Below, piece after piece: positions 11,157 through 53,533 of a stretch of DNA of 64,000 bases (position 1 is the first letter of the stretch; the number at the start of each line of letters is the position of its first letter). Made by a program: the position numbers and the translations under genes. This stretch comes from Myxococcota bacterium (GTDB lineage: Bacteria > Myxococcota_A > UBA9160 > SZUA-336). The notes under the pieces are model-generated. The model did no database searches. It saw only the letters and a list, made by a program, of their open reading frames with translations, and was not told the origin of the DNA. The stretch spans positions 160,001-224,000 of the forward strand of contig CBDFGR010000002.1 in assembly GCA_965247115.1 (NCBI GenBank), given 5' to 3'.

Positions 11157-11184
11157 TCAAGCGACGTGGCTTTTTTACCGATGA
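11157..11184 (+). promoter_or_regulatory. Sigma28/FliA-like promoter of giant TPR gene
   Basis: TCAA-N16-ACCGATGA, 9 nt before GTG 11194. Confidence 0.55.
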
Positions 11185-11193
11185 GCCCTAGTC

Positions 11194-14100
11194 GTGGAGC
11201 CCAACACGTCGCCGGCCATGGACGACTCGCGCGTTCAGCGTCTGCTCGAGCAATTTGCCGTCGACCCGAGCGACACCCCCGCCTTTCGCACCCTCGAGGA
11301 GCACCTGTTCTTCGTCGAGGCGTGGCAGCAGCTCGCGGGCGTGTACGAGTGTCGTATCTCGGCCACTCCTGACGCGGATCCCGAGCGCGAGCGCTTGCTC
11401 CTGCGGCTCGCGACCGTGCTCGAGGAGCGCCTTGCAGATGTCGACGGTGCGAGGCAGCGACTCGAGGAGCTGCTGCGTCAGAACTCCGAGCACGCCGAGG
11501 GCCTGGCGTCTCTGCGGCGTCTGCACACCCGGGCCGGTGAGCTGACCGCGGCTCTTCAGCTCGCCGAGATCGAGGAGGGTCTACCGCTTCGCGCGCTGGA
11601 TCGCGCGAAGGTGCTGGCCGAAATCGGCTCGCTGTGGAACCGCGCGGGAGACCCGACCGAAGCAGAGCGTCGTCTGGAAGAGGCGCTACAGCTCGATCCG
11701 AGCTGCGATCTGGCACTGGAGGAGCGCGCGAACGGAGCGGCGGAGCTCGGGAGGAACGAGGAGGCACTCCGGCTCCACGCCGTACGTGTGAAGTCCCTGG
11801 TGGGGGCCGCGCGCTGCGACGTGCTCGGTCAGATGGTCGAGCTCTTGCCCCCAGCACAGAAGGATCGAATTGGCACCCTGCTGCGCGAGATCGTGCGTCA
11901 GTTTCCCGACCGCCCGGACCCGATCCGTCGCTTGATCGAGATCGAGTCCGAAGCTCGGGAGTACGAACGGGTCGACGAGCTGCAGCGGGCTCTCTGGAAA
12001 GCCCTGCGAGATCCCGTCGAGCGTGTGCGCCTGGCACTGGAGGCGTCCGCGCTGCAGCTGCGGGAGGCTGCCGACCTGGGGGCCGCGTTCTACTGGGCGG
12101 ACCTGACAGACGAGGTAGCACCGGGAGACATCGACGTGCAGGAGCTGCGCGCCAGGTTGTTCCGGCGCACGGGCCAGAGCGAGAACCTGATCGCCACACT
12201 CGAGAAGCTCGTCCGCATAGACGGACCGACGCAAATGCGCCTGCTCGAGCTCGCCGTGCTGCAGGAGCGTGAAGGGCGACCCGAGCTGGCCACCGAGTGG
12301 CTCCAGCTACTGCTGGAGCAGAATCCCGGCGATGGCGAAGCACTGCAGGCGCTCGACCGCTGTCTCGTGACCCTCGGCCGGCACGGGGAGCGCGCTCGGC
12401 TGCTCGAGCGGCGCGCCCAAGACGCGAAGAGCCCCGGCGAGGCCGCCGACCTCTTGTGCGAGCTGGCCGACCTCTGCATCGGGCCGCTCCAGGACCTGCC
12501 CGCCGGAGAGGACGCCTATCGCAGGGCGCTCGAGCGCGTCGATCACTCGGCAGCCTCCGAAGGCCTGCGGCAGCTCCTCGCCAAAGGCGAGCGCTTTGCG
12601 GATCTCGCCCGACTCCTCGAGCAGCTGGTGGGTCGGGAGACCAGGTCGAAAGTCCGCTCCGAGCTCCTGACGGAGCTCGGAGAGGTCCGGCTCCAGTCGC
12701 TTGCCGACGCTTCCGGCGCTCGCGAAGCCTTCAGCCGGGCACTCGATGCCGATCCGGAGGCACGCTCGGCGCTCCAGGGCCTGCGCAATGTTGCGGATTC
12801 CAACGGGGACTCCGGCGCGCTGCTGGAGGCCTGTCAGCGGGAGGTCGAGCTCGAGCCCGATCCGGCTCAGCAGATCGCTCTCTTGCGGGAGCTCGTGGGC
12901 GTTGCGCGCTCGGCCGAGCAGCTGCCCCGCGCGCGACGCGCCGCCCAAGCCTGGACCGAGCTCGAGGCGTCGCGCGAGTCGCTCGAGGCGCTTGCCGACA
13001 TCGGCCGCAGCATGAACGACGAGAGCTGCGAGCGCGGTGCGCTCGAAGCGCTCGAGGCGGTCCTGGCCGACGAGCCGGGGGCGCGTGCCCGGGTGCTCGC
13101 CCGCCTCGGCGAGCTCGCTCTCGAGCTGGCAGATCCAAACGCCCTGAGCGTTGCCTGTCACTGGTATCGCGAAGCCCTGGTGCAGGCTCCAGACGAGGCC
13201 GTGCGTTCCAAGCTGATCGAGCTGTACAGGGCGGGCGGCCAGCTTGCAGAGCTGGTCCACGAGCTCCGCGCCCGACTCGAGACCCTCGCTGGCCAGGAGA
13301 CGATCCCGTGCCGAGTCGAGCTTGCCGAGGCCCTGCGCCAGCTGGGGGATCTCTCTGCTGCCATTGAGATCCTCTGGCCTGCGTTCGAGGACGATCCCGG
13401 CCATCCGGACATTGCGGAGTCGCTCGAGGTCTTGCTCCGGGAGCAGGGCCGGGACGAACAGCTCCGTGAGGTGCTCGGTCGTCGGCTCTCCGCGGAACGC
13501 GAGCCCACGCGACGCCGCGGCGTTGCACAGAAGCTCGCCGAGCTCCTGCTCGACGGGCAGGGGCGAGCCCCCGACGCTGTGGCCGTCCTGCGCGAGGTCG
13601 CGGACCCCAGTCGCAACGAGAGCCTGGAGGCGCTGTTCGAGCGCGCCCTCGAAGCATCGAGCGTACGGGGGGAACGCGAGTCCTGGCTGCGCTCGCGCAC
13701 GGCGCACGTCGACGCGCCGCAGCAGGTCGAGCTGCTTCTGCAGCTGTCCGCTATCCAGGCGGAAGACGGGCGGCGCGACGAAGCGATCGAGACCGTACGC
13801 CGCGCGCACCGGTTGCCGGCCGGCGCGGCTCTCGAGAGCGTCCAGAGCCGGCTGCTGAGCTTGCTACGCGGGCACCGCTCGTCCCGCGAGCAGCTCGACC
13901 TGCTGGGAGAGCTACTCGAAGAGACGGAAGAGCCCGCACCCCGCGCGGCTTTCCTGATTGAGCGCGCCCGCATTCAGGCGGACGACCTGGATGCGCCGGA
14001 CCGCGCGATCGAGGAGCTCGAGCAGGCGCAGCAAGAGGCGGAGCTCAGTGCGGACGAGCTCGGAGTCGTCTCGAACCTGTATGCGCGCACCGGTGCTGTG

Positions 14101-17100
14101 GTTCAGCAGGCCAGCGCCCTGGGCGCGCTCGCCAAGCTGACGAAAGATCGAGACGAGCGGCGCCGCACGCTGCTTCGGTTGGCTGCACTTCGTCTGGACG
14201 GTCCAAGCGCTGCGAGAGATCGTGACGAGGCCGAGGTTGGGTTGCGGCAGGTCCTGGAGCTGGATCCAGCGGATCGAGAGGCCTTCGATCGACTGCTCGC
14301 GCTCTACGACGAGGACTTGCGCAGCACCGACGTGTGCAAGCTCCTGCAGGCCCGCCTGGCGCTCCCCGAGCTGCGGACGAGCGAGCGTAGCTCGCTAGCG
14401 CTCCGCCTGGCCACGCTACAGATGGAGCTTGGCCAGCCGGAGACCGCTGCGGAGACGGTCCGAACCGCGCGCGCCGCGGGCATCGATCGGGCGGCACTGA
14501 ACGAGCTCCTGTTCGCGGCGCTCGAGGCCGGAGGCGAGGCCGAGGACAGCGCGGAGCTGTCCGAGGAGCGGGCCCGCGTGGAGAGTGGGACCGAGCGTGC
14601 GCGCTGGCTGAAGCGCTGGCTGGACACCCACGCGATCGATGGAGACTCCGCCCGCGAGCGGCTCGAGCGGGTCAACGAGCTGCTCGCAGAGCGGCCCAGC
14701 GACGCGGAGCTCATCGCGCTCCGCCTACCGCTGCTCCGCGAGCTCGGGCTGCTGACGGAGCTGGCCGAAGCCCTGGAGGACATCGTGAGCGGCAGGTCGC
14801 CACTTCCCGACGGACGTCGCAGCGTATGTCTGCGCGAGCTACTCCAGCTGTATGAAGGGGCGCTTTCGCTGCCGGAACGCGCGCTCGAGTGGATCGAATC
14901 CGAGGTGGAGACCGAGCCCAGTCTGCGTCTGCGCGGCGCGGACCTGGCGCGCGATCTCGGACAACCCGCGCGCGAGGCGGCGTTGCTGGGGCCGCTCGTT
15001 CAAAGCGATGGGCCAGCTACACCAGACTGCGTACGCCGTCTCGGACTCGCGCTCTGGCAGAGTGAGGATCCTGGCGCTGCGGAGCAGCTGCTCTGGCGTG
15101 CTCTCGATAACGATCCGAAAGATCGCGAAGCCCTCGAGGCCCTGCAGGCCTTGACCGAGGAGCGGGCCGACCCGGTGGGCCTGCTCCGGGTCCTCGACGC
15201 GCGCTTCTCGCTCGAGTCCGGGGCGACACGCAAGACTGTCGCCCGCGAGGGTCTCGAGCTGGCTGCTCGCGAGGGTCAGAGCCCGCTCGAGCTGCGCTGG
15301 CTTCGGCGCGTGCAGTTCCTCGAGCCGCTAGCCATCAAGGAGCGGGCGCGCTGGCTGGAGCTCGAACGCGAGCTCGGCGATCGACCCGGCATCCTCCTCG
15401 CACTCAAGGCCCTGCGTCAGACTGCTCTCTCGCCACTCGAGGTGTCGGAGCTCCTGGCGGCGGAGGCGGACATCCACGTCGAGTGCGGCCAGCTCGGGCT
15501 CGCGCGCGAGGGGTACACAGAGACGATCCGGATTTCCGCCAATCCTCCAGTAGCCTGGCTCCAGGCACTCGAGGTCATCCTCAAAAGTCGGGGCCAACTG
15601 TCTGAACGTGCTGAGCTCTTGCACCAGCTCTCGACCCATCCCGACCTCTCTCTCGAGGAGCGGCGGGTCTGGCAGGAGGGTCGCTTCGCCCTGCTCACGT
15701 CGCATCCGGAGCTCTGCGAGGCTGCTGCCGTCGAGCTGCGCAGCCTGGCGTCGAGTGCGGAGACGGATCCCGCGCTTCGAATCGAGCGGATGCGCCAGCT
15801 GCTCGGCGTCTACGAGGAGCTGGAGCGCAGCGCCGACTGGTGCGAGCTCGCTGCGGAGCTCGTGCCAATGCTGCCCGAGGACGAGCGCAGGGACCTGCAG
15901 CGTCAGGTCGCCTCCCGACTTGCGCAGCCGCTCTACGATGTCGAGCGGGCGACGGCAGCCTGGGAGTCGCTCCTATCCGAGCTGCCAGAGGACACCGAGG
16001 CGCTCGAGGCCCTCGCCTCGCTGTTGCGACGTCCCTCCACCGAAGCTCGCCTGGCCGAGGTGCTCGAACGCTGGGCGGACTGCGGCGCGCCCGAGCCTGC
16101 GGCGTGCTGGCTCGAGGCCGCGGAGCTGCGCTGGCGCGAGCTGCGTGACGCCTCCGGTGCGCTCGCCGACGCCGATCGTGCCCTCGAGATCGACACGACA
16201 CTCGAGCCGGCACATGCCCTGCGCAGCGAGCTGTGTGCGCATCTCGACCGGGTGGAGGACGAGGCCACGTCACTGGAGGCGCTGATCGAGGCGGACCCGA
16301 AGAATCCTCAGGCGACGGAGTGGTGGCTTCGTCTGGCCCAGATCGCAGCCCGAGAGCCCACGGGTCGGGAGCGGGCCGAGGAGGCGGTCGACCGTGTCCT
16401 GGAGCTCGGCGCTACCACCATGGCCCAGGCGACCGGGCTCCGAGCGGTTCTGGAGCGCCTGGGAGATTGGTCCAGGGCAGCCGACCTGCTCCACACGGAG
16501 ATCGATGCGGCGGAACCCGCGGACAAACCCGACCTCCTGCGCCGCCTGGCGCGCGTCAGCTGGGATGAGCTCCACCACGCCGAGGACACCTCGAGCGCGT
16601 TGGCCGCACTGTCCGAACACACAGCGCTCGACGCGGAGGAGCACGAGCGCTGGGCCGAGGCGCTGGCGAGCCTGGGGAGCTGGCCCGAGACGATTGCGCA
16701 ACGGCGCGCTGCTCTCGAGGCCGCGGGCGAGCAGACCACCGCGCGCGCCTGGCTCGAGCTGGCCCAGCAGATCCTCGAGAAGCTCGACGACCTCTCCCAG
16801 GCGTGCGAGGCCTGTGATCGGGCGCTGGCCCTCGAGTCGGACGACGTCGAGGCCTTGAGACTGCGGGCCACTCTTGCAACCCGGCTCGACGATCCGCTGA
16901 GAGAGCTCGAGATCCGCGAGCGACTCGTCGACCTGCTCGTCGACGAGAGGGCGGCGGCGCGCTCTAGCGCGCGGGCCGGGGACCTCGTTCGGGAACACAC
17001 GGACGATATCGGTCGCGCGATGAACCTGTATCGCCTCGCCCTGCGCCGGGATCCTTCGCTCCTGACCGCACTGCTCGGGGCTGGCGAGCTTGCGTTGCAG

Positions 17101-18924
17101 CTGGGGGAGTGGGCCGAGGCGGAGCGGCGTCTCGGAACCGCATGCTCCATCTTGCCGGAGAGCGAGCTCTGCGAACGCCTGGCGGACACCGCCCTCGGCG
17201 CGGCGACGGCCGCCGCACAACTGCAGCGGCATGCAGAGGCATTTCGCTACCTCGAGCTCTCCCTGCAGCAACAGCCCGAGCACCCGGGCGCGCTCGATGC
17301 GATGACGGAGCTCAGCCTGCGGCTCGGATCCTATGAGCGCGCGCTCGATTGCCTGCGCGCGCGCCTGGACACGGGTGCGCTGGAGCCCTATACGCGTGCC
17401 GATCGCCTGGTCCAGCTCGCCCAGGCCTACGAGGGCGTCGGGCGTCGAGAGGAGGCCGCGAACGCGCTCGAGGAAGTCCTCTCGATCCGGCCTCAAGACG
17501 AGATCACCCGGGCACGAACCGTCGACCTACTCGAGCAGCTTGGCGAGACCGAGCGCGCCATCGCCCAGGTCGAGGACTGGATCGAGCGCTCCGCCTCCGA
17601 GTTCGTGCCCCGCCTGGAGCTGCGCGCGGCCCGGTTGGAGCGCACGCTCGAACGCCGCACGGAGGCCCGCCGACGGCTCGAGCGGGTCGTGGAGGCAGAC
17701 GATCCCCCGGCCGCTGCCTGGGTGGATCTGGCGGAGCTCACGCTGGCGGACCTCGAGCCCGAGAGAGTCCTCGCCATCGCGCGCCGGGGACTCGACCGGG
17801 TCGAGACCCTGAGCGATCGGGCGGCTCTGCTCTGGACGGAGACCCGCGCCCTCGACGCGCTCGAACGCGAAGATGAGACCGCCGAGGCGGCCATGGAGAC
17901 GCTGACCCTCTACCCGGGAAACGTCGCGTGTGCCGAGCTTCTGGCCGGGAAGCTGTCCGCCCCCATCGACCGAGAGCGAGCGGTACGAGAGATCGAGCGC
18001 TCCCTCGATACGGGGAACGCAAGCCCCGCCGCAGAGGCGGCTCTGTGGGAGGCGATCGGACGAGCCTACTCCGGTCCGCTGCAAGCCATCGAGCGCGCCC
18101 AGCTCTGCTACCGGCGAGCACTCGAGTGCAATCCGCACCGCTCCAGCACCACCGAGGTGCTGGCAGACACCGCGGCCCTAGACCCCTCCTCCCACCACGA
18201 GTCGATCCACATGCATCGCAAGCTGCTGGACGAGTTCCCCGCCCGGCTGGGTAGCTGGAACGCCATCAGGCTGATTGGCGCGCATTGGAAACGGGAGCGC
18301 AGCCAGTCGACCAGCGAGCTCGTGCTGCGTGCGCTCGGTGTTCGCTCGGACGAGTTCGGGAGCAGACGCGCTCGGCCGCTGGTCGACGCCGGGCCTCCGG
18401 CTCAGGCCGAGCTACGCGCAGCGAGTCTGCTGCTGCGCACGCTCGCGGGTCGTGGCTCCGAGGATCCCGCGCCCCGCAGCGACGACGCAGGACTCCCCGA
18501 GGAGCTTCGCCGCGAGCTCACCAAGATCGCCGGTCCCCTCTGGAACCTGCCCGACGAGACCCTTTCCCAGGTCTGGCGAGAGCCCCTCGGCGAGGATCGG
18601 GATCCTGCACACTGGCTGACGCGGCGCACGCGCCGCCGCCTGCGCCGCGTTCTCGATGCGGTCGAGCTCGACTCTCTCCACTCCGTTGAAACAGCGAGCT
18701 GGCGCGCTGAGGTCCTGGCAGAGGCGGCCGCACGCACCCTGGAGCGGGGCCACCTCGACCTCGACGATCTCCTCCACGCCCTCCTGGGCGTCTGGCCAGC
18801 CACCCGTCACCTCGAGACAAAACCTGCCGACAACTCCGGCGCCGTCATCCAGATCTGCCCCCCCGCCCGCCGCCTACTCCTCCGCATCGCCACCGCCACC
18901 CTAAGCGGACTGGGCCTCTCCTAG
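11194..18924 (+). CDS. Giant (2576 aa) TPR/alpha-solenoid protein resembling myxobacterial AgmK-like repeat proteins
   Basis: Long ORF with many A...Y/F.RAL..DP...AL repeats; no signal peptide or catalytic motif recognised. Confidence 0.8.
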   Translation: MEPNTSPAMDDSRVQRLLEQFAVDPSDTPAFRTLEEHLFFVEAWQQLAGVYECRISATPDADPERERLLLRLATVLEERLADVDGARQRLEELLRQNSEHAEGLASLRRLHTRAGELTAALQLAEIEEGLPLRALDRAKVLAEIGSLWNRAGDPTEAERRLEEALQLDPSCDLALEERANGAAELGRNEEALRLHAVRVKSLVGAARCDVLGQMVELLPPAQKDRIGTLLREIVRQFPDRPDPIRRLIEIESEAREYERVDELQRALWKALRDPVERVRLALEASALQLREAADLGAAFYWADLTDEVAPGDIDVQELRARLFRRTGQSENLIATLEKLVRIDGPTQMRLLELAVLQEREGRPELATEWLQLLLEQNPGDGEALQALDRCLVTLGRHGERARLLERRAQDAKSPGEAADLLCELADLCIGPLQDLPAGEDAYRRALERVDHSAASEGLRQLLAKGERFADLARLLEQLVGRETRSKVRSELLTELGEVRLQSLADASGAREAFSRALDADPEARSALQGLRNVADSNGDSGALLEACQREVELEPDPAQQIALLRELVGVARSAEQLPRARRAAQAWTELEASRESLEALADIGRSMNDESCERGALEALEAVLADEPGARARVLARLGELALELADPNALSVACHWYREALVQAPDEAVRSKLIELYRAGGQLAELVHELRARLETLAGQETIPCRVELAEALRQLGDLSAAIEILWPAFEDDPGHPDIAESLEVLLREQGRDEQLREVLGRRLSAEREPTRRRGVAQKLAELLLDGQGRAPDAVAVLREVADPSRNESLEALFERALEASSVRGERESWLRSRTAHVDAPQQVELLLQLSAIQAEDGRRDEAIETVRRAHRLPAGAALESVQSRLLSLLRGHRSSREQLDLLGELLEETEEPAPRAAFLIERARIQADDLDAPDRAIEELEQAQQEAELSADELGVVSNLYARTGAVVQQASALGALAKLTKDRDERRRTLLRLAALRLDGPSAARDRDEAEVGLRQVLELDPADREAFDRLLALYDEDLRSTDVCKLLQARLALPELRTSERSSLALRLATLQMELGQPETAAETVRTARAAGIDRAALNELLFAALEAGGEAEDSAELSEERARVESGTERARWLKRWLDTHAIDGDSARERLERVNELLAERPSDAELIALRLPLLRELGLLTELAEALEDIVSGRSPLPDGRRSVCLRELLQLYEGALSLPERALEWIESEVETEPSLRLRGADLARDLGQPAREAALLGPLVQSDGPATPDCVRRLGLALWQSEDPGAAEQLLWRALDNDPKDREALEALQALTEERADPVGLLRVLDARFSLESGATRKTVAREGLELAAREGQSPLELRWLRRVQFLEPLAIKERARWLELERELGDRPGILLALKALRQTALSPLEVSELLAAEADIHVECGQLGLAREGYTETIRISANPPVAWLQALEVILKSRGQLSERAELLHQLSTHPDLSLEERRVWQEGRFALLTSHPELCEAAAVELRSLASSAETDPALRIERMRQLLGVYEELERSADWCELAAELVPMLPEDERRDLQRQVASRLAQPLYDVERATAAWESLLSELPEDTEALEALASLLRRPSTEARLAEVLERWADCGAPEPAACWLEAAELRWRELRDASGALADADRALEIDTTLEPAHALRSELCAHLDRVEDEATSLEALIEADPKNPQATEWWLRLAQIAAREPTGRERAEEAVDRVLELGATTMAQATGLRAVLERLGDWSRAADLLHTEIDAAEPADKPDLLRRLARVSWDELHHAEDTSSALAALSEHTALDAEEHERWAEALASLGSWPETIAQRRAALEAAGEQTTARAWLELAQQILEKLDDLSQACEACDRALALESDDVEALRLRATLATRLDDPLRELEIRERLVDLLVDERAAARSSARAGDLVREHTDDIGRAMNLYRLALRRDPSLLTALLGAGELALQLGEWAEAERRLGTACSILPESELCERLADTALGAATAAAQLQRHAEAFRYLELSLQQQPEHPGALDAMTELSLRLGSYERALDCLRARLDTGALEPYTRADRLVQLAQAYEGVGRREEAANALEEVLSIRPQDEITRARTVDLLEQLGETERAIAQVEDWIERSASEFVPRLELRAARLERTLERRTEARRRLERVVEADDPPAAAWVDLAELTLADLEPERVLAIARRGLDRVETLSDRAALLWTETRALDALEREDETAEAAMETLTLYPGNVACAELLAGKLSAPIDRERAVREIERSLDTGNASPAAEAALWEAIGRAYSGPLQAIERAQLCYRRALECNPHRSSTTEVLADTAALDPSSHHESIHMHRKLLDEFPARLGSWNAIRLIGAHWKRERSQSTSELVLRALGVRSDEFGSRRARPLVDAGPPAQAELRAASLLLRTLAGRGSEDPAPRSDDAGLPEELRRELTKIAGPLWNLPDETLSQVWREPLGEDRDPAHWLTRRTRRRLRRVLDAVELDSLHSVETASWRAEVLAEAAARTLERGHLDLDDLLHALLGVWPATRHLETKPADNSGAVIQICPPARRLLLRIATATLSGLGLS

Positions 18925-18964
18925 CCGTCCCGTCGCGCATCGGCAGAAGTCCGACGGCGCTACG

Positions 18965-19888
18965 TCAGCGAGCGAGAGCGAGCGGTCGGACCCGTGCGGG
19001 AACGCCCACCGGAACCGGACCGTGGGCACCGGGCACTTCCACCGTCCAGCAGCCCGGGTTCGCGCGGATCTCCGCGACGAGCGCCTGATGCAGCGCGTGC
19101 CCGCTCCGCATCGCCTTCACATGGCCGCGCAACCTGAGTCCGAGCAGCGCGAGGTCGCCCACCAGATCGAGCGCCTTGTGGCGCACGAACTCCTCGGGAA
19201 AGCGCAGCCCCTCGCGGTTGAGGACCCTGCGGTCGTCGAGCACGATTGCGTTCTGAAGAGAGCCACCCAGTGCGAGGCCGACCGCCTGCATCTTCTGCAC
19301 GTCGGCGAGGAAGCCGAAGGTCCGCGCCGGCGCGATCTCTCGCGAGTAGACCTCTGGTGTCACCTTCACCGTCGGGAACGACTGACGGCCGATCGAGGGG
19401 TGCGCGTAATCGATCCCCAGCGAGACCTTGAAGTCGCGGGAGGGCAGGACGCGGACCCAGCGATCGCCGTCTCGCACTTCGATCGGCTTGGTGATCACGA
19501 GCCTGCGGCGCATGCGCCGCTGCGGCTTGAGCCCCGCGTGCTGGATCATGTAGACGAACGGCGCCGCGCTGCCGTCCATGATCGGGAGCTCCGCGCCTCT
19601 ACACTCCACGGTGCAGTTGTCGACGCCCATACCGTAGAGGGCGGAGATCAAATGCTCGACCGTGGACAGGCGTGCATCCTGGTTACCGAGGGTGGTTGCC
19701 AGAGTCGTGTCGACGACCCACTCTGCCCGCGCCGGGAAGCGCACCGGCCGCGGCAGATCAGTCCGCAGCAGCAGGATCCCGGTGCCAGCAGCAGCGGGGC
19801 GCAGGACGAGGTCCACGGGCTTTCCGGAGTGCAGCCCGATCCCCGTACACTGCACTCGAGACGCGAGCGTGTGCTCCACCGGTCTCAA
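18965..19888 (-). CDS. lpxC: UDP-3-O-acyl-GlcNAc deacetylase
   Basis: GIGLHSG, STVEHL, ELPIMDGSA, ARTFGF, EFVRHKALDLVGDL, SGHALH; start TTG 19888 or GTG 19879. Confidence 0.97.
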   Translation of the reverse strand: MRPVEHTLASRVQCTGIGLHSGKPVDLVLRPAAAGTGILLLRTDLPRPVRFPARAEWVVDTTLATTLGNQDARLSTVEHLISALYGMGVDNCTVECRGAELPIMDGSAAPFVYMIQHAGLKPQRRMRRRLVITKPIEVRDGDRWVRVLPSRDFKVSLGIDYAHPSIGRQSFPTVKVTPEVYSREIAPARTFGFLADVQKMQAVGLALGGSLQNAIVLDDRRVLNREGLRFPEEFVRHKALDLVGDLALLGLRLRGHVKAMRSGHALHQALVAEIRANPGCWTVEVPGAHGPVPVGVPARVRPLALAR

Positions 19889-19948
19889 ACGACAACCCCT
19901 CCCCTCATCCCAGCGACGCGTTCCCTGACACGCCGCCCGCAGGACACT

Positions 19949-19965
19949 AGCAACGGACATGCCAA
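19949..19965 (-). promoter_or_regulatory. Sigma54 (-24/-12) promoter of lpxC
   Basis: Minus strand TTGGCAT-GTCCG-TTGCT matches TGGCAC-N5-TTGCW. Confidence 0.75.
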
Positions 19966-20095
19966 GCCTGCGCCACCGCGTAATTTTTCTGCCGAAGACT
20001 GGTACAGGCCCGGATTCTATGACGATTTTGGTTCCCGATCGCCTACCTCCTGGCTCGACGCAACCATCCAGGACGGGCTGGAGGATGGCCTCCCG

Positions 20096-20131
20096 GTGAC
20101 GTTTCGATTACGGCGTGACGTTTTCGTCACG
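20096..20131. promoter_or_regulatory. Putative enhancer (UAS) for a sigma54 activator
   Basis: Perfect palindrome CGTGACG-TTTT-CGTCACG (20114-20131) plus degenerate copy GTGACG-TTTC-GATTAC (20096-20111), ~130-165 bp upstream of the -24 box. Confidence 0.6.
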
Positions 20132-20167
20132 ATCCGTCGAACGTTCCGGCGGCTGGAGGCCCGCTGT

Positions 20168-22771
20168 TCACGCGGCCGGCGGCGCGCCGCTCAGGCGCTC
20201 GACCTCCTCGATGATCTCTCGCGCGGAGGCGAAGCGCTGATCGGGATCCTTCTCGAGACAGCGCAGGATGATGGCGGCGAGCGCCGGAGGGAGATCGGCC
20301 TTGACCGTCAGCGGATCCGGTGGTGCCGTGTGTACGTGGTGGTAGGGCACGTTGCCCTTCTGGAACGGGAGCTCTCCCGTCGCCAGCTCGAACAGCGTGA
20401 CACCGAGCGAGTAGATGTCGGTGCGATGGTCGATGTTCCGCCCCAGCGTCTGCTCGGGCGACATGTAGAACGGGGTGCCAGAGACGAGCGTCGTCGCCTG
20501 GCGGACCTCTTCCATGAGCTTGGCCAGACCGAAGTCCATGATCTTCACCTGCTTCTCCGTAGTCCACATCGTGTTGGCCGTCTTCACGTCGCGGTGGACT
20601 ACGCGCCTGCTGTGCGCGTAAGAGAGAGCCTCAGCCATCTGCTTGAGGATGTAGATCACTCCGCCCGGAGCGATCGGCCCGCGTCGATGCAGGATCTCCT
20701 TGAGCGTCGTTCCGTTCACCAGCTCCATCGCCAGGTAGAAGCCGTCGTCCGACTCGCCGGCGTCGTAGACCGTGACGATATTCGGGTGGTTCAGCTGCGC
20801 CGCAGCCTTTGCCTCCCGCAGGAAATTGCGTAACGCGTTCGGGTTCTCGCGCAGCCCCTCGGGCAGCACTTTGTATGCCACCTCGCGCTCGAGCACTGAG
20901 TCCCGGGCCAGGTACACCACACCCATTCCCCCGCGTCCGAGCTCGCGCATCCTCTCGTAGCGACCTGGCTGGGCCTGCGCGTTGGGCGACGAGGTCGGGA
21001 CGGGATCCGCGTTGCGTTGCTCCTCGAGGCCTTCCCTGGCCGCAGCAAGACGGTCCGCGACGTCGCGATAGTGGTAGTCGAAGCTCATGACCTTCTCGTA
21101 GATCTCGATGCTGCGCTCGAAGTCCTTGCGCTGGTCGAGCGCCTTTCCGAGCTCGTAGTGCGCCTCGACGGTCGCCCGGCTCATACCCTCCGCACCCGCA
21201 GCCTGCTCGAACTTCGTGATCGAGAGAGCCGCCATGCCCTTGTTCGCGAAGATGCGGCCGAGCAAGGAACAGGCTTCGGTGTAGTGCGGGTTGCCGGACT
21301 CGACCTGCTGGAACAGGCGAATCGCCTCGTCGTACTGCTCGAGATCCGCGAACGCGGTGCCCGCCTCGAATACCTTTCCGGCCTTCTCCAGCATCTCTGC
21401 GCGGCGAGGCGTGTTTCCCGCCAGCGCGTAGCAGTCCGCGGCCTGCTCGAATTGGTGGTTGGACTCGAAGGCCTCGGCAGCGCGCTCGGGCTGCTCAGCG
21501 GCGCGGAACATCTCGGCCGCGGAGGCGTGGTCTCCCCCCTTCATGTAGCACTCTGCCGCCTCCCCAAAGCGCTCGAGCTTTCGGTAGAGGTCACCCGCGG
21601 CCGCGAATTCGCCGGCGTTCTCCAGGTGCGTGACGGCCTGGGCGTCATCCCCCTTGTCGCGCAGGTACTCGCCAAGCGCGCGCTCCGCGGCCTCAGTGTT
21701 TCCCCCCTTCTCGAGCGCCTTCGCGGCCAGATCGCCGCGACCGACGCGGAGGAACAGGTCGGAGGCGCGGTCGTAGGCCTCGAGCTGGTACGCCACCTTG
21801 GCCGCCCGACCGAACGCACCCGCGCGTACGAGGACCGCCTCAGCCTCCTCGTAGAGCTCGAGCTTGGTGAACAGCTCGCCGGCCTTGCGGGCGAGCCCGC
21901 GCAGCTCGCGCGCCTTCGCTTCGTTCTGCGCGGCAGCCCCCCCTCCCTCATCGTCGAACGCGGCCAAAAGGGCGCGCGCAGCCTCGAGGTCAGAGCCCGA
22001 TTTCAGGAAGGACTGGGCCGCGTGACGATGGAAGCCGACCTCCTGATAGCAGCGGCCCGCCTCCCTGAAGTTCTCCGCGCGCTCGAACATCTCGCCCGCA
22101 ACCGAGTACTTGTCCACCGATAGGTAGCATTGCGCGGCATCCTCGAAGCGCCCGATCTGCGCGTAGATCGTGCCAGCCGCCTCGGTCATGTCGCCACGAC
22201 GATAGAGCTCTGCGGCTTCCTCGAAGCGGTTCTGGTCGTGTCGGACCTCCGCTGCGCGGTCGAACAGCTCTCCCGCGATCAGGAGCTCGGCCGCCTCGTC
22301 CTTGAGCTCCTGATCGAGCAGGTAGCGCGCGGCCGCCTCGATCCCACCCGCCTCGCGGATCGACGCCGCGACCCGCGCGTGCTTCTTCCGGTCCCGGCTC
22401 GAATACGTCGGCGCGGCCTGGGTGTCGGCGGCGTACCCGGGCAGCGCCTCCGGCTGTGCGGAGGTCATCCCGTTCGCCTCAGGACCGGTGGGCCAGACCG
22501 CGAAGCCCAGCAGGCAGAGGCTCGCGGCGAGCAACGCCGCGGAAAGCGGCAGCACGGAGATCTCCTCCAGCTTGGAGAACACCGCCTCCATATTTTCCAA
22601 ATGCTCGCGAGCGCTGACCGGGTCCGGACTCTCCCTTGCCGTGCTCCTTGCTTGCTCGCGCAGCGAATCGATCAGCTCGGGACCCTTCTGGTACAGCACG
22701 ACCCCCCCGATCCCGGCCAGGAGCAGCGGGACCGCGACGCAAAACGCAAGGATCCTTAGGGCGATTCGCAC
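20168..22771 (-). CDS. Membrane-anchored TPR-repeat Ser/Thr (Hanks) protein kinase
   Basis: Two N-terminal hydrophobic segments, ~500 aa of helical repeats, C-terminal GRGGMGVVY/VAYK/HRDVKTAN/DFG/GTPFYMSPE; start GTG 22771 (alternative 22801). Confidence 0.9.
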   Translation of the reverse strand: MRIALRILAFCVAVPLLLAGIGGVVLYQKGPELIDSLREQARSTARESPDPVSAREHLENMEAVFSKLEEISVLPLSAALLAASLCLLGFAVWPTGPEANGMTSAQPEALPGYAADTQAAPTYSSRDRKKHARVAASIREAGGIEAAARYLLDQELKDEAAELLIAGELFDRAAEVRHDQNRFEEAAELYRRGDMTEAAGTIYAQIGRFEDAAQCYLSVDKYSVAGEMFERAENFREAGRCYQEVGFHRHAAQSFLKSGSDLEAARALLAAFDDEGGGAAAQNEAKARELRGLARKAGELFTKLELYEEAEAVLVRAGAFGRAAKVAYQLEAYDRASDLFLRVGRGDLAAKALEKGGNTEAAERALGEYLRDKGDDAQAVTHLENAGEFAAAGDLYRKLERFGEAAECYMKGGDHASAAEMFRAAEQPERAAEAFESNHQFEQAADCYALAGNTPRRAEMLEKAGKVFEAGTAFADLEQYDEAIRLFQQVESGNPHYTEACSLLGRIFANKGMAALSITKFEQAAGAEGMSRATVEAHYELGKALDQRKDFERSIEIYEKVMSFDYHYRDVADRLAAAREGLEEQRNADPVPTSSPNAQAQPGRYERMRELGRGGMGVVYLARDSVLEREVAYKVLPEGLRENPNALRNFLREAKAAAQLNHPNIVTVYDAGESDDGFYLAMELVNGTTLKEILHRRGPIAPGGVIYILKQMAEALSYAHSRRVVHRDVKTANTMWTTEKQVKIMDFGLAKLMEEVRQATTLVSGTPFYMSPEQTLGRNIDHRTDIYSLGVTLFELATGELPFQKGNVPYHHVHTAPPDPLTVKADLPPALAAIILRCLEKDPDQRFASAREIIEEVERLSGAPPAA

Positions 22772-22778
22772 CTCTGGC

Positions 22779-22806
22779 TCATCGTCCGGAGCACTCCCCA
22801 CGTTGA
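22779..22806 (-). promoter_or_regulatory. Sigma28/FliA-like promoter of TPR kinase
   Basis: Minus strand TCAA-N16-GACGATGA, 7 nt before GTG 22771. Confidence 0.55.
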
Positions 22807-22920
22807 GAACGCAGCGCGCTCGGGGAAGCGCCAGCGGGCGACAGCAACGAACAACTTCGCGGTCGGAGCGGAGCCGCGAGGCGCTCTACTCAAGCTGGCT
22901 ACACGCTCGTGAGAGAGCTC

Positions 22921-23955
22921 CTAGAACAGCTTCTCCTGGGCGACTCGGTCGGGCTGCAGGGGATCGATCCCGAAGTGCTCATACGCGCGCTTCGTGGCGA
23001 CGCGTCCGCGCGAGGTGCGATCGAGATAGCCCTCCTGGATCAAGAAAGGCTCGTAGATATCCTCGATGGTGCCCTTATCTTCTGCCGTCGTCGCCGCAAG
23101 CGTCTCGAGACCGATCGGTCCGCCGTCGTACTTCTCGATCAGCGTGAGAAGGATCTGTCTATCCATCCGGTCGAAGCCGGCCTCATCCACCTCCAGGCGA
23201 GCCAGAGCGTGGCGGGCCTGGGCAAGCGTGATCCTGCCGTCTCCCTTGACCTCGGCGTAGTCGCGCACGCGACGCAGAAGTCGGTTCGCGAGGCGCGGCG
23301 TACCCCGCGAGCGCCGGGCCAGCTCGAGCGCGCCCTCGGAATCCATCGGGATGTCGAGGATGCGGGCGCTGCGCCGCAGAATCTTCACGAGCTCGGCCGG
23401 CGCGTAGTACGAAAGCCGCGCGATGATGCCGAAGCGGTCGCGGAGCGGAGATGTCAGCAGACCGGCGCGCGTGGTGGCGCCGACGAGAGTGAAGCGGGGG
23501 ATGTCGATCTTGACGCTCTGCGCGGAGGGCCCGTGACCGATGATCAGGTCCAGCTTGAAGTCCTCCATGGCCGGGTAGAGGATTTCCTCGACCGTGGGGT
23601 TCAACCGGTGGATCTCGTCGATGAAGAGCACCGAGTCCGGCTCCAGGTTCGTCACCACCGCGGCCAGGTCGCCGGCACGCTCGATCACCGGACCTGACGT
23701 CACGCGCAGGGGCGCACCCATCTCGCGTGCGATCACGTGAGCGAGCGCCGTCTTGCCCAGCCCGGGAGGGCCGTGGAAGAGCGTGTGATCGAGAGGTTCC
23801 CGTCGCTCCCGTGCGGCCTCGATGAACACGGAGAGGTTCTCGCGGAGGCTATCCTGACCGACGAACTCTTCCAGCGTGAGCGGTCTCAGCCGCGCCTCGA
23901 GCGCGCGCTCGGATTCGAGCGCTGTCGGGATCAAGGTGTCATCCGGCCGCGACAC
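22921..23955 (-). CDS. ruvB: Holliday junction helicase RuvB
   Basis: [39 protein letters not shown]. Confidence 0.99.
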
Positions 23956-24532
23956 GCAAGGCCTCTCGTATCAGCTCTTCGAGTTGCAGCTCGCCCTCCG
24001 GGACCTGTTCGAGCGCCCGGCGGACAGCCTTGTCGGCGTGGCTGCGAGGGTAGCCCAGGTTGACGAGCGCGGAGACGGTCGCCTCCTGTGCATCCGTGGC
24101 ACCCTCGCTCTGCTCCTCGATCAGCTCGAACAGGGCGACCTTGTCGCGCAGCTCGATCAAGATCCGCTCGGCCGTCTTTGGGCCGACTCCGGGGACACCC
24201 GTCAGCGAGGCGACGTCCTTGCGGCGGACGGCCAGGAGCAGGCGTTCCACCGGCAGGCCGGACAGGATCGCCAGCGCCACCCTCGGCCCGACACCGGCGA
24301 TCCCGATCAGGAGCCGGAAGCCGAGGCGCTCCTCCGGGCTGAGAAAGCCGTACAGCTGGAGCGTGTCCTCTCGAACGTGCGTGTGTACCTCGAGACGTAC
24401 GGTCTTCCCTGGATCCGGGAGCTCCACGAAGGTCGAGAGCGGCACGCGCAACTCGTAGCCGACCCCACCGACGTCGAGCACGAGCGCGTCGGGCGCCTTC
24501 TCTGCCAGCACCCCCTCGAGTCGGCCGATCAC
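23939..24532 (-). CDS. ruvA: Holliday junction protein RuvA
   Basis: [42 protein letters not shown]. Confidence 0.98.
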
Positions 24533-25047
24533 GGGCGGGGCTCCCGCTGCTCGCGAGCATTCGCGCCCGCCAGCCTCGAGTCGAGCCGCTCGGAGAGCGC
24601 GTGGCAGATCGACACGGCGAGCGCATCCGCCTCATCGGGGCCAGGGAGAGCGTCGAGCTGCAGCAGATGCTGGACCATGTGCTGGACCTGTGCTTTGTCC
24701 GCGCGCCCGTAGCCGCTGACGGCGAGCTTGACCCGGGTCGGGGCGTACTCGGCAGCTCGCAGACCGGCGCCACCGCAGGCGGCCAGGGCTGCACCCCGCG
24801 CATGACCAAGTAGGATGGCCGAGCGCGGATTGCGATGACTGAACACCGCCTCCAGGGCGACCGTATCTGGCGCGCACTCGACGATGATCTGGGAGATCGC
24901 CCCGTGGATGTGGCCGAGCTTCGCGACCAGGCTCGGCTCGCTGGCTCGGATCACCCCGCTCCGCACCCAGCGGAGCCGGGAGCGCTGCAGGTCGACGATG
25001 CCCCAGCCCGTCCTCCGAGAACCCGGATCGATGCCGAGTACACGCAT
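24529..25047 (-). CDS. ruvC: Holliday junction resolvase RuvC
   Basis: VLGIDPG, LGHARG, GYGRADK.QV..MV, DEADALAVSICH. Confidence 0.97.
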   Translation of the reverse strand: MRVLGIDPGSRRTGWGIVDLQRSRLRWVRSGVIRASEPSLVAKLGHIHGAISQIIVECAPDTVALEAVFSHRNPRSAILLGHARGAALAACGGAGLRAAEYAPTRVKLAVSGYGRADKAQVQHMVQHLLQLDALPGPDEADALAVSICHALSERLDSRLAGANAREQREPRP

Positions 25048-25081
25048 GCTCACCCCCGCCTGACAGGGGGAGTCTAGCGCG

Positions 25082-25837: not shown

Positions 25838-25846
25838 GAGGTTTCG

Positions 25847-25875
25847 GGGATACCACCAGAGCCGCGAGCGGTCAA
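25847..25875 (-). promoter_or_regulatory. Sigma70-like promoter of yebC-ruvCAB
   Basis: Minus strand TTGACC-N17-TATCCC with TG extension. Confidence 0.5.
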
Positions 25876-25907
25876 TCCAGAATTGGCAACTTCCTTTGGC
25901 CTTCGCG

Positions 25908-25935
25908 TAAACCCGCCATCGCTGCGTGCCGATGG
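25908..25935 (+). promoter_or_regulatory. Sigma28/FliA-like promoter of Hsp70-J operon
   Basis: TAAA-N16-GCCGATGG, close to consensus TAAA-N15/16-GCCGATAA. Confidence 0.65.
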
Positions 25936-25976
25936 GAGGGGCACGAGCCGGAGGCGCCTCGGCTTCGGAGGCGGGA

Positions 25977-27854: not shown

Positions 27855-27868
27855 GGCACACCCCCCCG

Positions 27869-28384: not shown

Positions 28385-28391
28385 GCCTCGT

Positions 28392-28939: not shown

Positions 28940-28952
28940 GGGGGGAATTCAG

Positions 28953-46851: not shown

Positions 46852-46878
46852 TCAGATCGGGCCCCGTCGCGCCGATAG
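46852..46878 (+). promoter_or_regulatory. Sigma28/FliA-like promoter of stator genes
   Basis: TCAG-N15-GCCGATAG, 9 nt before ATG 46888. Confidence 0.6.
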
Positions 46879-46887: not shown

Positions 46888-47667
46888 ATGGACCTCGCCA
46901 CCATCATCGGCATCGTGCTGGGCTTCGGCCTGATCGTCGGGGCCATCCTCCTCGACGGTTCGCTGACGGCGTTCATGAACCTTCCCGGCGCCCTGGTCGT
47001 GATCGGAGGCACGATCGCCGCGACGCTGATCAAGCAGAAGCTACGGAGCGTGCTCGCCGCATTCAGTGTCGCGAAGCAGGCGTTCCTGTTTCGGCTCCCC
47101 CCCATCGAGGAGCTCGTCTGCAAGCTCCACGAGCTCTGCGAGCTCGCCCGCAAGGACGGCGTACTCGCCCTGGAGGAGGTCGAGGTAAAGGATGCCTTTC
47201 TCGCCCGCGCCCTGGTCATGGCGATCGACGGGCTCGACGCGGACTTCGTCGTCTCAAACCTGCGCCGCGACGCGGCCTCGCTCCTGGGCCGACACCAGAG
47301 CGGGCAGCAGGTCTTTCGATTCATGGCTTCGACCGCGCCGTCGATGGGCATGATCGGCACTCTGATCGGCCTCGTGAACATGCTGCAGACGCTGGATGAT
47401 CCCGCCTCGATCGGGCCGGCCATGGCGGTGGCGCTGCTCACGACCTTCTACGGCGCAGTGCTGGCATTCCTGGTCTTCGGCCCGATCGCGGAGAAGCTCG
47501 AAGCGCGCACGAAAGAGGAGCTGCTGCGCAGGAATCTCGTCATCGCCGGCATCGAGTCGGTCATCTGTCGCCACAACAGGAACCTGACCCAGACGCATCT
47601 CGATGCGTACCTCGCTCCCAGACAGCGCCAGGCGTCGAGCCCAGACGGGGGGCAGGACCGACGGTGA
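46888..47667 (+). CDS. motA: Flagellar stator A subunit (MotA/PomA)
   Basis: MDLATIIG, VIGGT, ARKDGVLALE, APSMGMIGTLIGL, IGPAMAVALLTT.YG. Confidence 0.92.
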   Translation: MDLATIIGIVLGFGLIVGAILLDGSLTAFMNLPGALVVIGGTIAATLIKQKLRSVLAAFSVAKQAFLFRLPPIEELVCKLHELCELARKDGVLALEEVEVKDAFLARALVMAIDGLDADFVVSNLRRDAASLLGRHQSGQQVFRFMASTAPSMGMIGTLIGLVNMLQTLDDPASIGPAMAVALLTTFYGAVLAFLVFGPIAEKLEARTKEELLRRNLVIAGIESVICRHNRNLTQTHLDAYLAPRQRQASSPDGGQDRR

Positions 47668-48419
47668 GCGAGGAGAGCTTCGAGACGGAGGAGACGCTGC
47701 CGGCTGCGGGAGCACCGGCCTGGATGGCCACCTTCGCGGACATGATGACTCTCCTGCTCTGCTTCTTCGTGCTCATGCTCTCCTTTGCCTCGATCGACAT
47801 CGTCAAGTTCCGCGACATGCTGGGCTCGATGGAAGAGGCCTTCGGCGCGGTCCGGGTCGATCCGGGGCCGTGGGACGCGGCCACGTCGGTACCGGTGGAG
47901 CTTTCTGGCCAGGACACCCTCGTGCCGCCTCCCTCGGAGCCGGCCGCGGAACTGCCCACAGGAAATCCCGAGCTCGCGCGCGGCATGCGCGAGCTGACGG
48001 AGCGCGCCGAGCTCCAGGGGCTGGTGCGAAGCGTGTACACGGATCGCGGGCTCACCCTGCGCATGGAGGGCTCGTTCATGTTCGAGTCCGGGTCGGACGA
48101 GATCCGACTGGGCGCGATGACGCTGCTCGACGAGATCGCCGTCCTCGCGGAGAGCTCCGACCAGCTGATCTCTGTGGAAGGACACACCGACGACGTGCCG
48201 ATTCGCAGCGCCCAGTTTCCGACGAACTGGCACCTGTCGACGGCGCGCGCGGTCGCAGGCGTGCTCCACCTGACCGGTCCCGGCAAGCTCGATCCGGCGC
48301 GGCTCCGCGCTACGGGCTTCGCGCACACTCGCCCTGTCGCCTGGGGCCAGAGCGACGAGGCGCGCAGGGAGAACCGTCGGCTGGAGATCGTCTTTCACAC
48401 GCCCAACGCTCCGCGCTGA
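47664..48419 (+). CDS. motB: Flagellar stator B subunit (MotB/PomB) with OmpA-like peptidoglycan-binding domain
   Basis: WMATFADMMTLLLCFFVL, EGHTD, NWHLSTARA, NRRLEI. Confidence 0.92.
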   Translation: MSEESFETEETLPAAGAPAWMATFADMMTLLLCFFVLMLSFASIDIVKFRDMLGSMEEAFGAVRVDPGPWDAATSVPVELSGQDTLVPPPSEPAAELPTGNPELARGMRELTERAELQGLVRSVYTDRGLTLRMEGSFMFESGSDEIRLGAMTLLDEIAVLAESSDQLISVEGHTDDVPIRSAQFPTNWHLSTARAVAGVLHLTGPGKLDPARLRATGFAHTRPVAWGQSDEARRENRRLEIVFHTPNAPR

Positions 48420-52874: not shown

Positions 52875-53486
52875 TCAGGCGTCGCGGATGATCGCGATCA
52901 GCCGGCCGCGGACCTGGTCGACCTCAGCGATGCGCAACGCAACGCCGGGTGGATCCTGATTCAGCTTGACGACCGTGCCGCTGCACTCGATCTGACCGTG
53001 GGGCGGTGGGAGAATCAATGGGACTACGACCTCGCTGTCCAGCTCCGGCTCCTCCGGCGTCGACACCAGGAGGCCCCCGTACTTGATGTCCCGCTCGTAG
53101 ACCTCCGCGAGATGTGCGGGATCCGAGAGATCGACCCGGAGCCCGGCGCCCGGCGCTGCCACGTCAGGAGACAAGATGCTCTTCACGACCTCGCGGATGC
53201 CGACGAAGCGGAACCCGACCGTGGGCTTGAACATCGAGCGGGCCTGCGGCGGGTAGACCTTGCGGCGTACGACCACGACTTCTGCGAAGAAGCTCGTCTC
53301 GGGCAGGATGATCTCCAGGTGGAAGCGCTGGCCGAGCTGCAGGGTCTTGCTGGTCTCGATCAGCAGGCCCTTGTTGGACACGTTCGTGGTGAAGCCCCGG
53401 CCCTCGAACTCATCGTTCCAGAAGCGCACGTCCAGGCGACGTCTCTGTCGCTGACTGCGGCGGCGTTCGTTTTCTTTGCGCGACAT
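52875..53486 (-). CDS. Tandem PilZ-domain protein
   Basis: ERRRSQR (RxxxR) plus NVSNKG (D/NxSxxG) in domain 1; second domain with DIKYGGLLV. Confidence 0.8.
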   Translation of the reverse strand: MSRKENERRRSQRQRRRLDVRFWNDEFEGRGFTTNVSNKGLLIETSKTLQLGQRFHLEIILPETSFFAEVVVVRRKVYPPQARSMFKPTVGFRFVGIREVVKSILSPDVAAPGAGLRVDLSDPAHLAEVYERDIKYGGLLVSTPEEPELDSEVVVPLILPPPHGQIECSGTVVKLNQDPPGVALRIAEVDQVRGRLIAIIRDA

Positions 53487-53505
53487 GCAACCGGCCCTGC
53501 CGTCC

Positions 53506-53533
53506 TCATCGTCCGGGAGCGGCACCGACTTGA
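53506..53533 (-). promoter_or_regulatory. Sigma28/FliA-like promoter of PilZ gene
   Basis: Minus strand TCAA-N16-GACGATGA, same boxes as the kinase promoter. Confidence 0.55.

Follow-up and report, generated by a model that had tools for sequence, protein, structure and literature searches.

A 64,000-nucleotide (nt) stretch of DNA from a Myxococcota bacterium (G000:C2:160001-224000, from a genome of 5.17 Mb that is 98% complete; hereafter, the window) raises the question of which program joins the five transcription units that follow sigma28-type promoter motifs in it. These units encode a giant tetratricopeptide repeat (TPR) protein, a Ser/Thr kinase with TPR repeats, an Hsp70 with a J-domain protein, the stator pair MotAB, and a PilZ protein. 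The original prediction, made from the window alone, read them as a sigma28/FliA-type regulon whose products may form one motor-linked machine. The regulon itself is supported, as are the presence of the sigma factor and the conservation of the motif before orthologues. The five motifs are a sample of approximately 85 sites, likely promoters at which a sigma factor of the flagellar type would chiefly serve pilus and polarity genes; the center of this regulon, the type IVa pilus machine and MglAB, is encoded outside the window and had been missed.

A spacer-specific sigma28-type motif

All five motifs were found at the positions and on the strands originally assigned to them (Table 1). The pattern T(A/C/T)AA-N16-N(A/C)CGAT matches the window four times, at the TPR, kinase, Hsp70, and PilZ sites only, compared to a mean of 0.55 matches (standard deviation, 0.67) in 100 shuffled versions of the window, none of which reaches 4; this pattern was written after the sites were known, and the genome-wide spacer test described below is the fairer one. 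The same four sites receive the four top scores of the window (16 to 19) under a matrix trained on the genome that contains it. The score of the motAB site is equalled or exceeded by five window matches inside coding sequence and, because it lies within the genome background, this site is only a plausible candidate for a sigma28 promoter. That several housekeeping neighbors carry TTGAC-type boxes instead, as had been predicted, was confirmed only in part; such boxes were recovered upstream of yebC and of the gene at 28508, and not in the other five of the seven intergenic stretches inspected, and a sigma70 scan of positions 10500-29000 yielded 2 sites versus 0.9 expected.

The search was extended to the 4918 genes of the genome, which were called with a home-made codon model and include some wrong starts. 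When limited to intergenic, correctly oriented positions within 150 nt of a start, the pattern assembled from the originally predicted boxes occurs 18 times at a spacer of 16 and 5 times at a spacer of 15, whereas the remaining eleven spacer lengths tested (10 to 22) give between 0 and 2 matches each. When a matrix was refined by iteration, it settled on T(C/A)AAG-N15-NCCGAT, with 108 sites listed. Scores of at least 16 are reached at 95 of the 4918 genes versus 3 of 1500 control-spacer tests (∼10 when scaled), and scores of at least 14 at 118 genes versus 10 of 1500 tests (∼33 when scaled), so that the genome-wide excess of sigma28-type sites over control spacers is about 85. At the level of score 9, the excess vanishes (311 of 4918 genes versus ∼298 in the scaled control). 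Across the whole genome, the exact motif is found 53 times at the true spacer and 14 times at the control spacer. The control consisted of shifting the spacer by three bases; a reversed-pattern control was too lenient, and both boxes are common in coding DNA.

It could be argued that GC-rich DNA has produced these motifs by chance, given the abundance of TCAAG and CCGAT in coding sequence and the position of the motAB site within the background. For the other four sites, this explanation is refuted by the spacer specificity, the intergenic position, and the conservation of the motif before orthologues with 30 to 75% protein identity; its overall probability is negligible, and it survives for motAB alone. 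The predicted fixed bipartite motif is therefore present beyond chance, as a spacer-specific excess in oriented intergenic DNA. Moreover, the boxes (-35 T(A/C)AA(G) and -10 CCGAT, at fixed spacing) agree with the consensus of mapped Bdellovibrio promoters (PMC3627812).

The genome encodes the FliA/WhiG-like sigma factor that the motif calls for, in two copies that match the family at 278 bits (cut-off, 189.6). The first gene, at G000:C3:235073, is followed by a gene for a FlgM-like protein of 67 amino acids (aa) that has its own motif and lies above the Pfam cut-off but below that of TIGR03824; such a gene adjoins the sigma gene in 12 of 80 loci. Across the best 80 loci, the first sigma is 74 to 96% identical. 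Its best PDB match is 6PFV, which we take to be Streptomyces WhiG, at 230 bits versus 200 for FliA (6PMI). Neither sigma gene is located inside a flagellar cluster; the first lies ∼30 kb from the pilus cluster, and in at least 16 genomes of the class it shares a contig with pilB at a distance of 24 to 40 kb. Of the 28 identical copies of a 349-aa transposase gene in the genome, one (G000:C3:233642-234691; L001, L243) precedes the main sigma28 gene by 380 bp, beside a sigma54 activator gene that the gene calls split in two.

In the classical FliA/SigD class 3 regulon, the motif is found on the flagellin genes, flgM, the flgK operon, and motAB, and the early genes depend on another sigma factor. 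Here, the motif precedes both flagellin genes, flgM, and flgJ-flgN-flgK, so that the comparison with the fliC and flgM promoters proposed with the original prediction turned out in its favor. Conversely, scores at flgB, flgF, and flhF gave no motif, and a sigma54 site precedes flgB, in the early operon; with the one sigma54 pattern used, no site was found before pilA, either fliA, flgF, or fliR. Presence of the motif on late and not on early flagellar genes is the layout expected of sigma28 promoters and, together with the sigma factors and the spacer-specific excess, argues that the predicted promoters are very probably of this type. The flagellar operon is in two pieces, flgB-fliQ (G000:C2:1589773-1604803, part of which is L262) and fliR-fliW (G000:C3:1914283-1930156, L208), both ending at copies of one insertion sequence, which indicates either rearrangement or misassembly; this break could separate flhBA-flhF from their promoter.

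The presence of two sigma28 genes, one followed by the short flgM and the other (L002:1432-2190) with no flgM alongside, and the difference between the main flagellin site (TAAA with CCGAAT) and most window sites (TCAA with CGAT) could be taken to indicate two mixed regulons, one paralogue reading the TAAA flagellar sites and the other the TCAA window-type sites. However, 23 of the 25 class genomes with a match encode only one sigma28, and class genomes nevertheless show both forms of the site, with TAAA at pilB and either TAAA or TCAA at mglB. Furthermore, the paralogues are 69% identical overall and almost letter-identical in regions 2.4 and 4.2; the place of the second sigma in the tree is weakly supported, and neither the tree nor the binding regions separates the two. 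Two separate regulons are, accordingly, highly improbable.

Targets of the motif

Families were assigned by scans against Pfam, NCBIfam, and PDB for 98 of the 108 genes that head a motif-bearing unit and for some operon partners. The motif precedes pilB-pilT-pilC-pilS-pilR, a helix-turn-helix gene that heads pilMNOPQ, and several pilin-like genes, as well as mglB-mglA, the products of which match solved MglB and MglA with E values of 1e-59 and 1e-100. It also precedes mreB, a bactofilin gene, divIVA, four genes for FHA proteins, and genes for GGDEF, EAL, and HDOD proteins. The site of an SgmX-like gene scores 11.2, and a site with a score of 13.0 precedes a gene that we take to be romR. PilZ genes are strongly represented, with 17 of 27 at a score of at least 12 compared to 164 of all 4918 genes. 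All three non-canonical (lid-less) Hsp70 operons carry the motif, in contrast to neither of the two canonical dnaK genes. Thus, non-flagellar targets dominate (pilus, polarity, cytoskeleton, cyclic di-GMP, and chaperone genes), and flagellar genes are a small minority, the chemotaxis operons not having been examined separately. With these assignments, it is very probable that pilus and polarity genes are the core targets. A classical class 3 flagellar regulon does not fit the dominance of non-flagellar targets or the retention of the sigma factor in genomes without flagellin.

Several of these units deserve individual mention. The helix-turn-helix gene heading pilMNOPQ encodes 84 aa and has a strong site (L201:17671-17922); a 78-aa helix-turn-helix gene similar to this leader carries the motif too (L255:440-673). 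Two further non-canonical Hsp70 units have the motif (L198:3510-4523 and L017:1489-3438), of which one lies behind a J-TPR gene; in one of them, a long insertion separates the two domains. Within 5 kb (L192:13716-18583), three PilZ genes are clustered with an Hpt gene and, after it, a gene for a GGDEF response regulator; a separate site precedes each PilZ gene and the Hpt gene. A 5894-aa protein with laminin-G and DUF2341 domains, probably an adhesin, is encoded from L195:610 onward (G000:C1:279609-297293) behind a strong site. Finally, strong sites precede rho (L277:3296-4540), divIVA (L274:627-1136), and mreB (L203:808-1836), which suggests links to transcription termination and cell shape. 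Some of the sites at housekeeping enzyme genes will be false positives.

Conservation and co-occurrence across the class

To the survey of the class, 61 genomes contributed, with the best 30 loci per gene taken from 48 to 59 matches; the loci of the genome itself and one kinase locus with 21 nt of upstream DNA (L142) were left out of the counts. The core pattern, with a spacer of 15 to 17, is found upstream of 28/29 TPR, 26/28 kinase, 24/29 Hsp70, 29/29 pilB, and 28/29 mglB orthologues, compared to 0 to 2 matches each at control spacers. In the most reduced or divergent genomes, 6/6 further pilB and 4/4 further mglB genes reach a score of at least 12, as do 4/4 orthologues of the window PilZ gene. 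The expected conservation thus held for the TPR, kinase, Hsp70, and PilZ genes and failed for motA, with a score of at least 9 in only 2 of 14 close orthologues (5 of 8 for a second motA type). For other Myxococcota classes, 80 genomes were searched and the best 30 pilB genes scored; not one of these 30 reaches 12, an absence that applies to this position only, as pilB may be operon-internal there. The sigma factor was detected in 27 of 28 class genomes (two as cut copies) and flagellin in 12 of 28; the motif is at least twice as frequent as at the shifted spacer in all 12 genomes with flagellin and in 10 of the 16 without. In G110 and G171, the two genomes without a pilB match, no match for mglB, the TPR protein, the kinase, Hsp70, or the sigma factor was obtained either.

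Conservation extends to the distance between the motif and the start codon. In the window, the -10 octamer ends 9 nt before the start codon of the TPR gene, 7 nt before that of the kinase gene, 9 nt before motA, 19 nt before the PilZ gene, and 41 nt before the Hsp70 gene, which agrees with the claim that three of the motifs end 7 to 9 nt before a start. Within the family to which the window belongs, the first in-frame start follows the octamer by 7 to 9 nt in 16/16 TPR and by 6 to 8 nt in 16/16 kinase orthologues with upstream DNA, in spite of N-terminal residues that vary. Leaders are present in other families of the class, with the TPR start 21 to 77 nt after the -10 box. Among the 112 strong sites of the genome itself, a start lies at 6 to 9 nt in 22, versus 5 to 7 sites in adjacent bins. 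The mapped starts of Bdellovibrio FliA promoters lie mostly 6 to 7 nt past the same box and, as counted by eye in the first half of Table S2 of that study, 15 of 58 FliA-type starts are located exactly at the first base of a gene (PMC3627812). The passages of PMC3627812 that were consulted do not discuss such starts. Because the Bdellovibrio starts are mapped at the same spacing from the box, it is likely that the TPR and kinase mRNAs are leaderless in this family. The original prediction of near-leaderless mRNAs is, then, upheld as likely for these two genes.

The distribution of the window genes bears on whether their products form one machine. Among the 61 genomes, the TPR protein was found in 48, the kinase in 53 (E < 1e-50), and Hsp70 in 53 (at least 60% identity); all three are present in 47 genomes and on one contig in 32, in a block shared with housekeeping genes. 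A motA match of any kind was obtained in 19 genomes, with motA matches going along with the presence of flagellin, and a close match to the window PilZ gene in 5. The original proposal that the stators, the TPR scaffold, the kinase, the Hsp70/J pair, and the PilZ protein make up a motor-linked machine had in its favor that all five motifs lie within 64 kb, that the window motAB pair sits away from both flagellar gene clusters, and that TPR proteins cooperate with proton-channel motors in Myxococcus gliding (PMC3169522). This proposal is largely refuted by the phyletic pattern: of the 61 genomes, 30 lack a motA match of any kind and still encode the TPR protein, and the same is true of 34 for the kinase and 35 for Hsp70, so that the three are not stator partners. 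In addition, the plug and OmpA domains of MotB are those of a flagellar stator, the PilZ gene is patchy, and the motAB site is the weakest of the five. A search for GltG, the sole Glt component sought genome-wide, found only FHA-domain matches and nothing above the cut-off. A motor-linked machine is accordingly very improbable.

What the three genes do follow is MglB. Presence of MglB with at least 60% identity agrees with presence of the kinase in 60, of Hsp70 in 60, and of the TPR protein in 55 of the 61 genomes. In genomes that have lost the kinase or Hsp70 along with loss or decay of MglB, PilB identity is 69 to 72%, compared to 72 to 75% elsewhere. This pattern points to the polarity switch rather than the stator as the probable context of the three proteins. 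Taken with the upstream sites, it leads to an explanation that appears reasonably probable as a whole, namely, a class-wide, sigma28-controlled program for type IVa pilus and MglAB surface motility with the TPR protein, the kinase, and Hsp70/J as accessories. The motif T(C/A)AAG-N15-NCCGAT, which precedes ∼85 transcription units, would be read by the conserved FliA/WhiG-type sigma encoded at G000:C3:235073, judging from its family and the form of the motif. This sigma would turn on pilB-pilT-pilC-pilS-pilR, the helix-turn-helix gene with pilMNOPQ, mglBA, mreB, the bactofilin gene, cyclic di-GMP enzymes, and the majority of PilZ receptors. In genomes that still have flagella, the ancestral targets fliC, flgM, flgJ-flgN-flgK, and probably motAB would be included, with a sigma54 site before the early flgB operon. 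Many of the target mRNAs, including those of the TPR protein and the kinase in this family, would begin at the start codon. Hsp70/J would act as a dedicated remodeling chaperone, and the kinase would provide membrane input for a cytoplasmic TPR scaffold of Mgl-dependent pilus polarity; this last step is the weakest, drawn from co-occurrence only, and has about an even chance of being right.

The alternative that has to be weighed most seriously is a broad life-phase switch similar to the Bdellovibrio attack phase, in which the TPR protein, the kinase, and Hsp70/J would serve adhesion, the envelope, prey contact, or growth arrest and would not be tied to pili or Mgl. FliA sites are found at 92 of 140 attack-phase promoters of Bdellovibrio, mostly of non-flagellar genes (PMC3627812), and the ∼85 sites described here likewise have mixed targets, among them mreB, the laminin-G protein, and genes without a family. 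Furthermore, the clustering of the TPR, kinase, and Hsp70 genes includes lpxC, ruvABC, and yebC and may be plain conservation of gene order. On the other hand, the most invariant sites are those before pilB and mglB, and kinase and Hsp70 losses coincide with loss or decay of MglB while PilB identity drops only slightly. On this evidence, the life-phase switch is rather unlikely.

Several points nevertheless weigh against a pilus and polarity program with these accessories. The list of head genes also holds rho, divIVA, and genes for lipoamide dehydrogenase, a topoisomerase, and sugar enzymes, and ∼30 head genes have no family at all; such a mixture fits a broader life-phase program. The major pilin gene has neither the motif nor, by the pattern used, a sigma54 site. 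Genomes without the TPR protein, the kinase, and Hsp70 retain pilB and its motif, and these genes are therefore unneeded for pili as such; numbers of PilZ matches in five genomes with the reduced set (5 to 15 each) do not discriminate. The lineages behind the joint losses number perhaps three or four (families f5, f6, and f8) and include two small genomes with much other loss, and the 60% identity line for MglB was set after the data had been seen. Eight of the surveyed genomes belong to one genus, so that the orthologue counts are not independent, and scores within the genome on which the matrix was trained are partly circular. In 6 of the 16 flagellin-less genomes, the motif excess is below twofold. 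The DNA-binding regions of the two sigma factors are nearly alike, so that either one may read a given site here. Finally, deletion of four other hsp70 genes of Myxococcus xanthus left swarming unchanged (PMC8265645; 10.64898/2026.08.28.747804), which argues against a strong motility role of lid-less types.

Window products, known parallels, and meaning

Table 1. Promoter motifs and genes of the 64-kb window (positions within the window)
Feature	Position	Strand	Details
Sigma28-type promoter motif, giant TPR gene	11157..11184	+	Spacer 16; matrix score 19.0
Giant TPR protein, 2576 aa	11194..18924	+	GTG 11194; Pfam TPR only
TPR-repeat Ser/Thr kinase, 867 aa	20168..22771	-	GTG 22771; Pkinase and TPR/clathrin-like repeats
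Sigma28-type promoter motif, kinase gene	22779..22806	-	Spacer 16; matrix score 16.1
Sigma28-type promoter motif, Hsp70-J operon	25908..25935	+	Spacer 16; matrix score 16.3
Hsp70, 599 aa	25977..27854	+	Pfam HSP70 at positions 2-516
J-domain protein, 171 aa	27869..28384	+	HPD motif; Pfam DnaJ
Weak sigma28-type motif, motAB	46852..46878	+	TCAG, spacer 15; score 9.5
motA/pomA-type flagellar stator subunit	46888..47667	+	Profile matches
motB stator subunit	47664..48419	+	Plug and OmpA domains
Tandem PilZ protein, 203 aa	52875..53486	-	Two PilZ stretches, TIGR02266-like
Sigma28-type promoter motif, PilZ gene	53506..53533	-	Spacer 16; score 19.4

The giant TPR protein has no hydrophobic window and is likely cytoplasmic. 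Its N-terminal extension ahead of the first ATG is kept in the close homologues P0001-P0003, and its gene has a sensor kinase gene and lpxC as neighbors. The nearest relatives outside the class are TPR proteins of 3450 to 4200 aa, some from Polyangia and Bradymonadales. Comparison with the ∼4100-aa proteins, among which the M. xanthus protein itself was not included, aligns mostly repeat on repeat, with scattered best matches and rough colinearity only for P0084, P0097, and P0118. A search of a protein atlas with the C terminus retrieved TPR clusters only, at 0.80 or below, which is a lead at most. GltI/AgmK, a 4132-aa cytoplasmic TPR protein of the M. xanthus gliding cluster, likewise lacks a signal or membrane segment (PMC3169522); unlike GltI/AgmK, the window protein is encoded outside a glt cluster, in a genome without GltG, and its similarity to proteins of that size is mostly repeat to repeat.

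The kinase has HRD and DFG motifs and two N-terminal hydrophobic segments, near residues 1-20 and 60-95, from which it is predicted to be membrane anchored; its orthologues align from the GTG at 22771, and its repeat region was matched in one of five genomes of other classes. The Hsp70-J operon is divergent from yebC-ruvCAB. Hsp70 and a J-domain protein are a textbook pair, and the J gene adjoins the Hsp70 orthologue in 29/29 loci. In an alignment with two canonical DnaK proteins, the window Hsp70 has the ATPase and peptide-binding domains but ends in an acidic tail where the lid helices would be, and it scores 643 bits against PRK00290 (cut-off, 648). Only class-level relatives are among the 120 homologues listed, and the best matches in five genomes of other classes (47 to 51% identity) are no nearer than paralogues. 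In M. xanthus, SglK, StkA, and MXAN_2747/3016/7025 are non-heat-shock Hsp70s, two of which are tied to pilus motility or exopolysaccharide; SglK, which is predicted to have a J-domain partner, belongs to the full PRK00290 DnaK type, and its gene is transcribed together with that of a GrpE homologue (PMC8265645; 10.64898/2026.08.28.747804). Unlike SglK, the window Hsp70 has no lid and has its own J gene as a neighbor.

The first domain of the PilZ protein contains RxxxR and NxSxxG, which we take to be cyclic di-GMP motifs. The protein had been cast as a flagellar brake, a role that its domains do not bear out: only PilZ and TIGR02266-like matches were obtained, with no YcgR/PilZN N-terminal domain. 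M. xanthus encodes 24 PilZ proteins, some of which act on motility or polarity, and PilZ-DnaK chaperones involved in cell death (PMC8316039, PMC10313047); given these other roles, PilZ genes need not be flagellar brakes. Apart from the motif-bearing units, the window contains at 60984-62589 three genes whose products resemble subunits of nitrile hydratase or thiocyanate hydrolase along with an accessory protein.

The principle that sigma28 can control more than flagella is not new, with precedents in Bdellovibrio and actinobacteria. The closest parallel is the Bdellovibrio FliA regulon, with the nearly identical consensus TTAAG-N16-CCGATA, ∼90 mostly non-flagellar promoters, a Flp/Tad pilus operon, and many starts at the first base of genes (PMC3627812). 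However, Bdellovibrio keeps its flagellum, whereas the sigma factor described here is retained in flagellin-less genomes. Moreover, the annotation of the Bdellovibrio promoter table, in which many rows are unnamed, contains a single 'pil' entry (TadC) and lacks entries for mgl, mreB, and dnaK (PMC3627812), in contrast to the motifs on the type IVa machine, mglBA, mreB, and the Hsp70/J operons found here. Actinomycetota WhiG is also a sigma28 free of flagella that recognizes T(C/A)A with GCCGA and is predicted to target, among others, type IV pilus genes and cyclic di-GMP enzymes (PMC13595943). It differs in belonging to another phylum and in its control by RsiG and cyclic di-GMP, compared to the occasional short FlgM-like gene here (RsiG was not searched), and section 9 of that article names no Mgl polarity or Hsp70/J targets (PMC13595943). 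From the classical class 3 regulon, the one described here differs in that flagellar sites are a minority and the sigma genes lie outside flagellar clusters, even though the shared targets are flagellins, flgM, the flgK operon, and probably motAB. Finally, M. xanthus SigF is an alternative sigma factor that is said to regulate genes of pilus-driven social motility (PMC9548883).

In the open-access literature, wiring of sigma28 to type IVa pili and MglAB was not found. The present analysis contributes the conserved members without a known role and their tie to MglB rather than to the stator, along with the finding that every lid-less Hsp70 operon has a sigma28 motif, the pattern of starts that fits leaderless mRNAs, and the comparison with an outgroup. 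The boldest version of the explanation would make a flagellar sigma the master switch of pilus motility and polarity, with the TPR protein, the kinase, and Hsp70/J as a chaperone-built, phosphorylation-tuned MglAB scaffold, translated from leaderless mRNAs, that survives as a forerunner of the GltI/AgmK platform in cells lacking a gliding motor; in this full form, it is distinctly unlikely.

For the biology of this uncultured class, the motif provides a predicted regulatory backbone, as one sequence pattern sorts ∼85 transcription units per genome into a motility program, a third of them without any family. It also puts forward, in a brief ordered list, candidates for accessories of polarity, namely, the giant TPR protein, the TPR kinase, and the lid-less Hsp70/J pair. 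A possible evolutionary route is that a flagellar regulator took over type IVa pili and MglAB and then outlived the flagellum, which would bear on the origin of myxobacterial surface motility and raises the question for Myxococcus of whether SigF reads such a motif.

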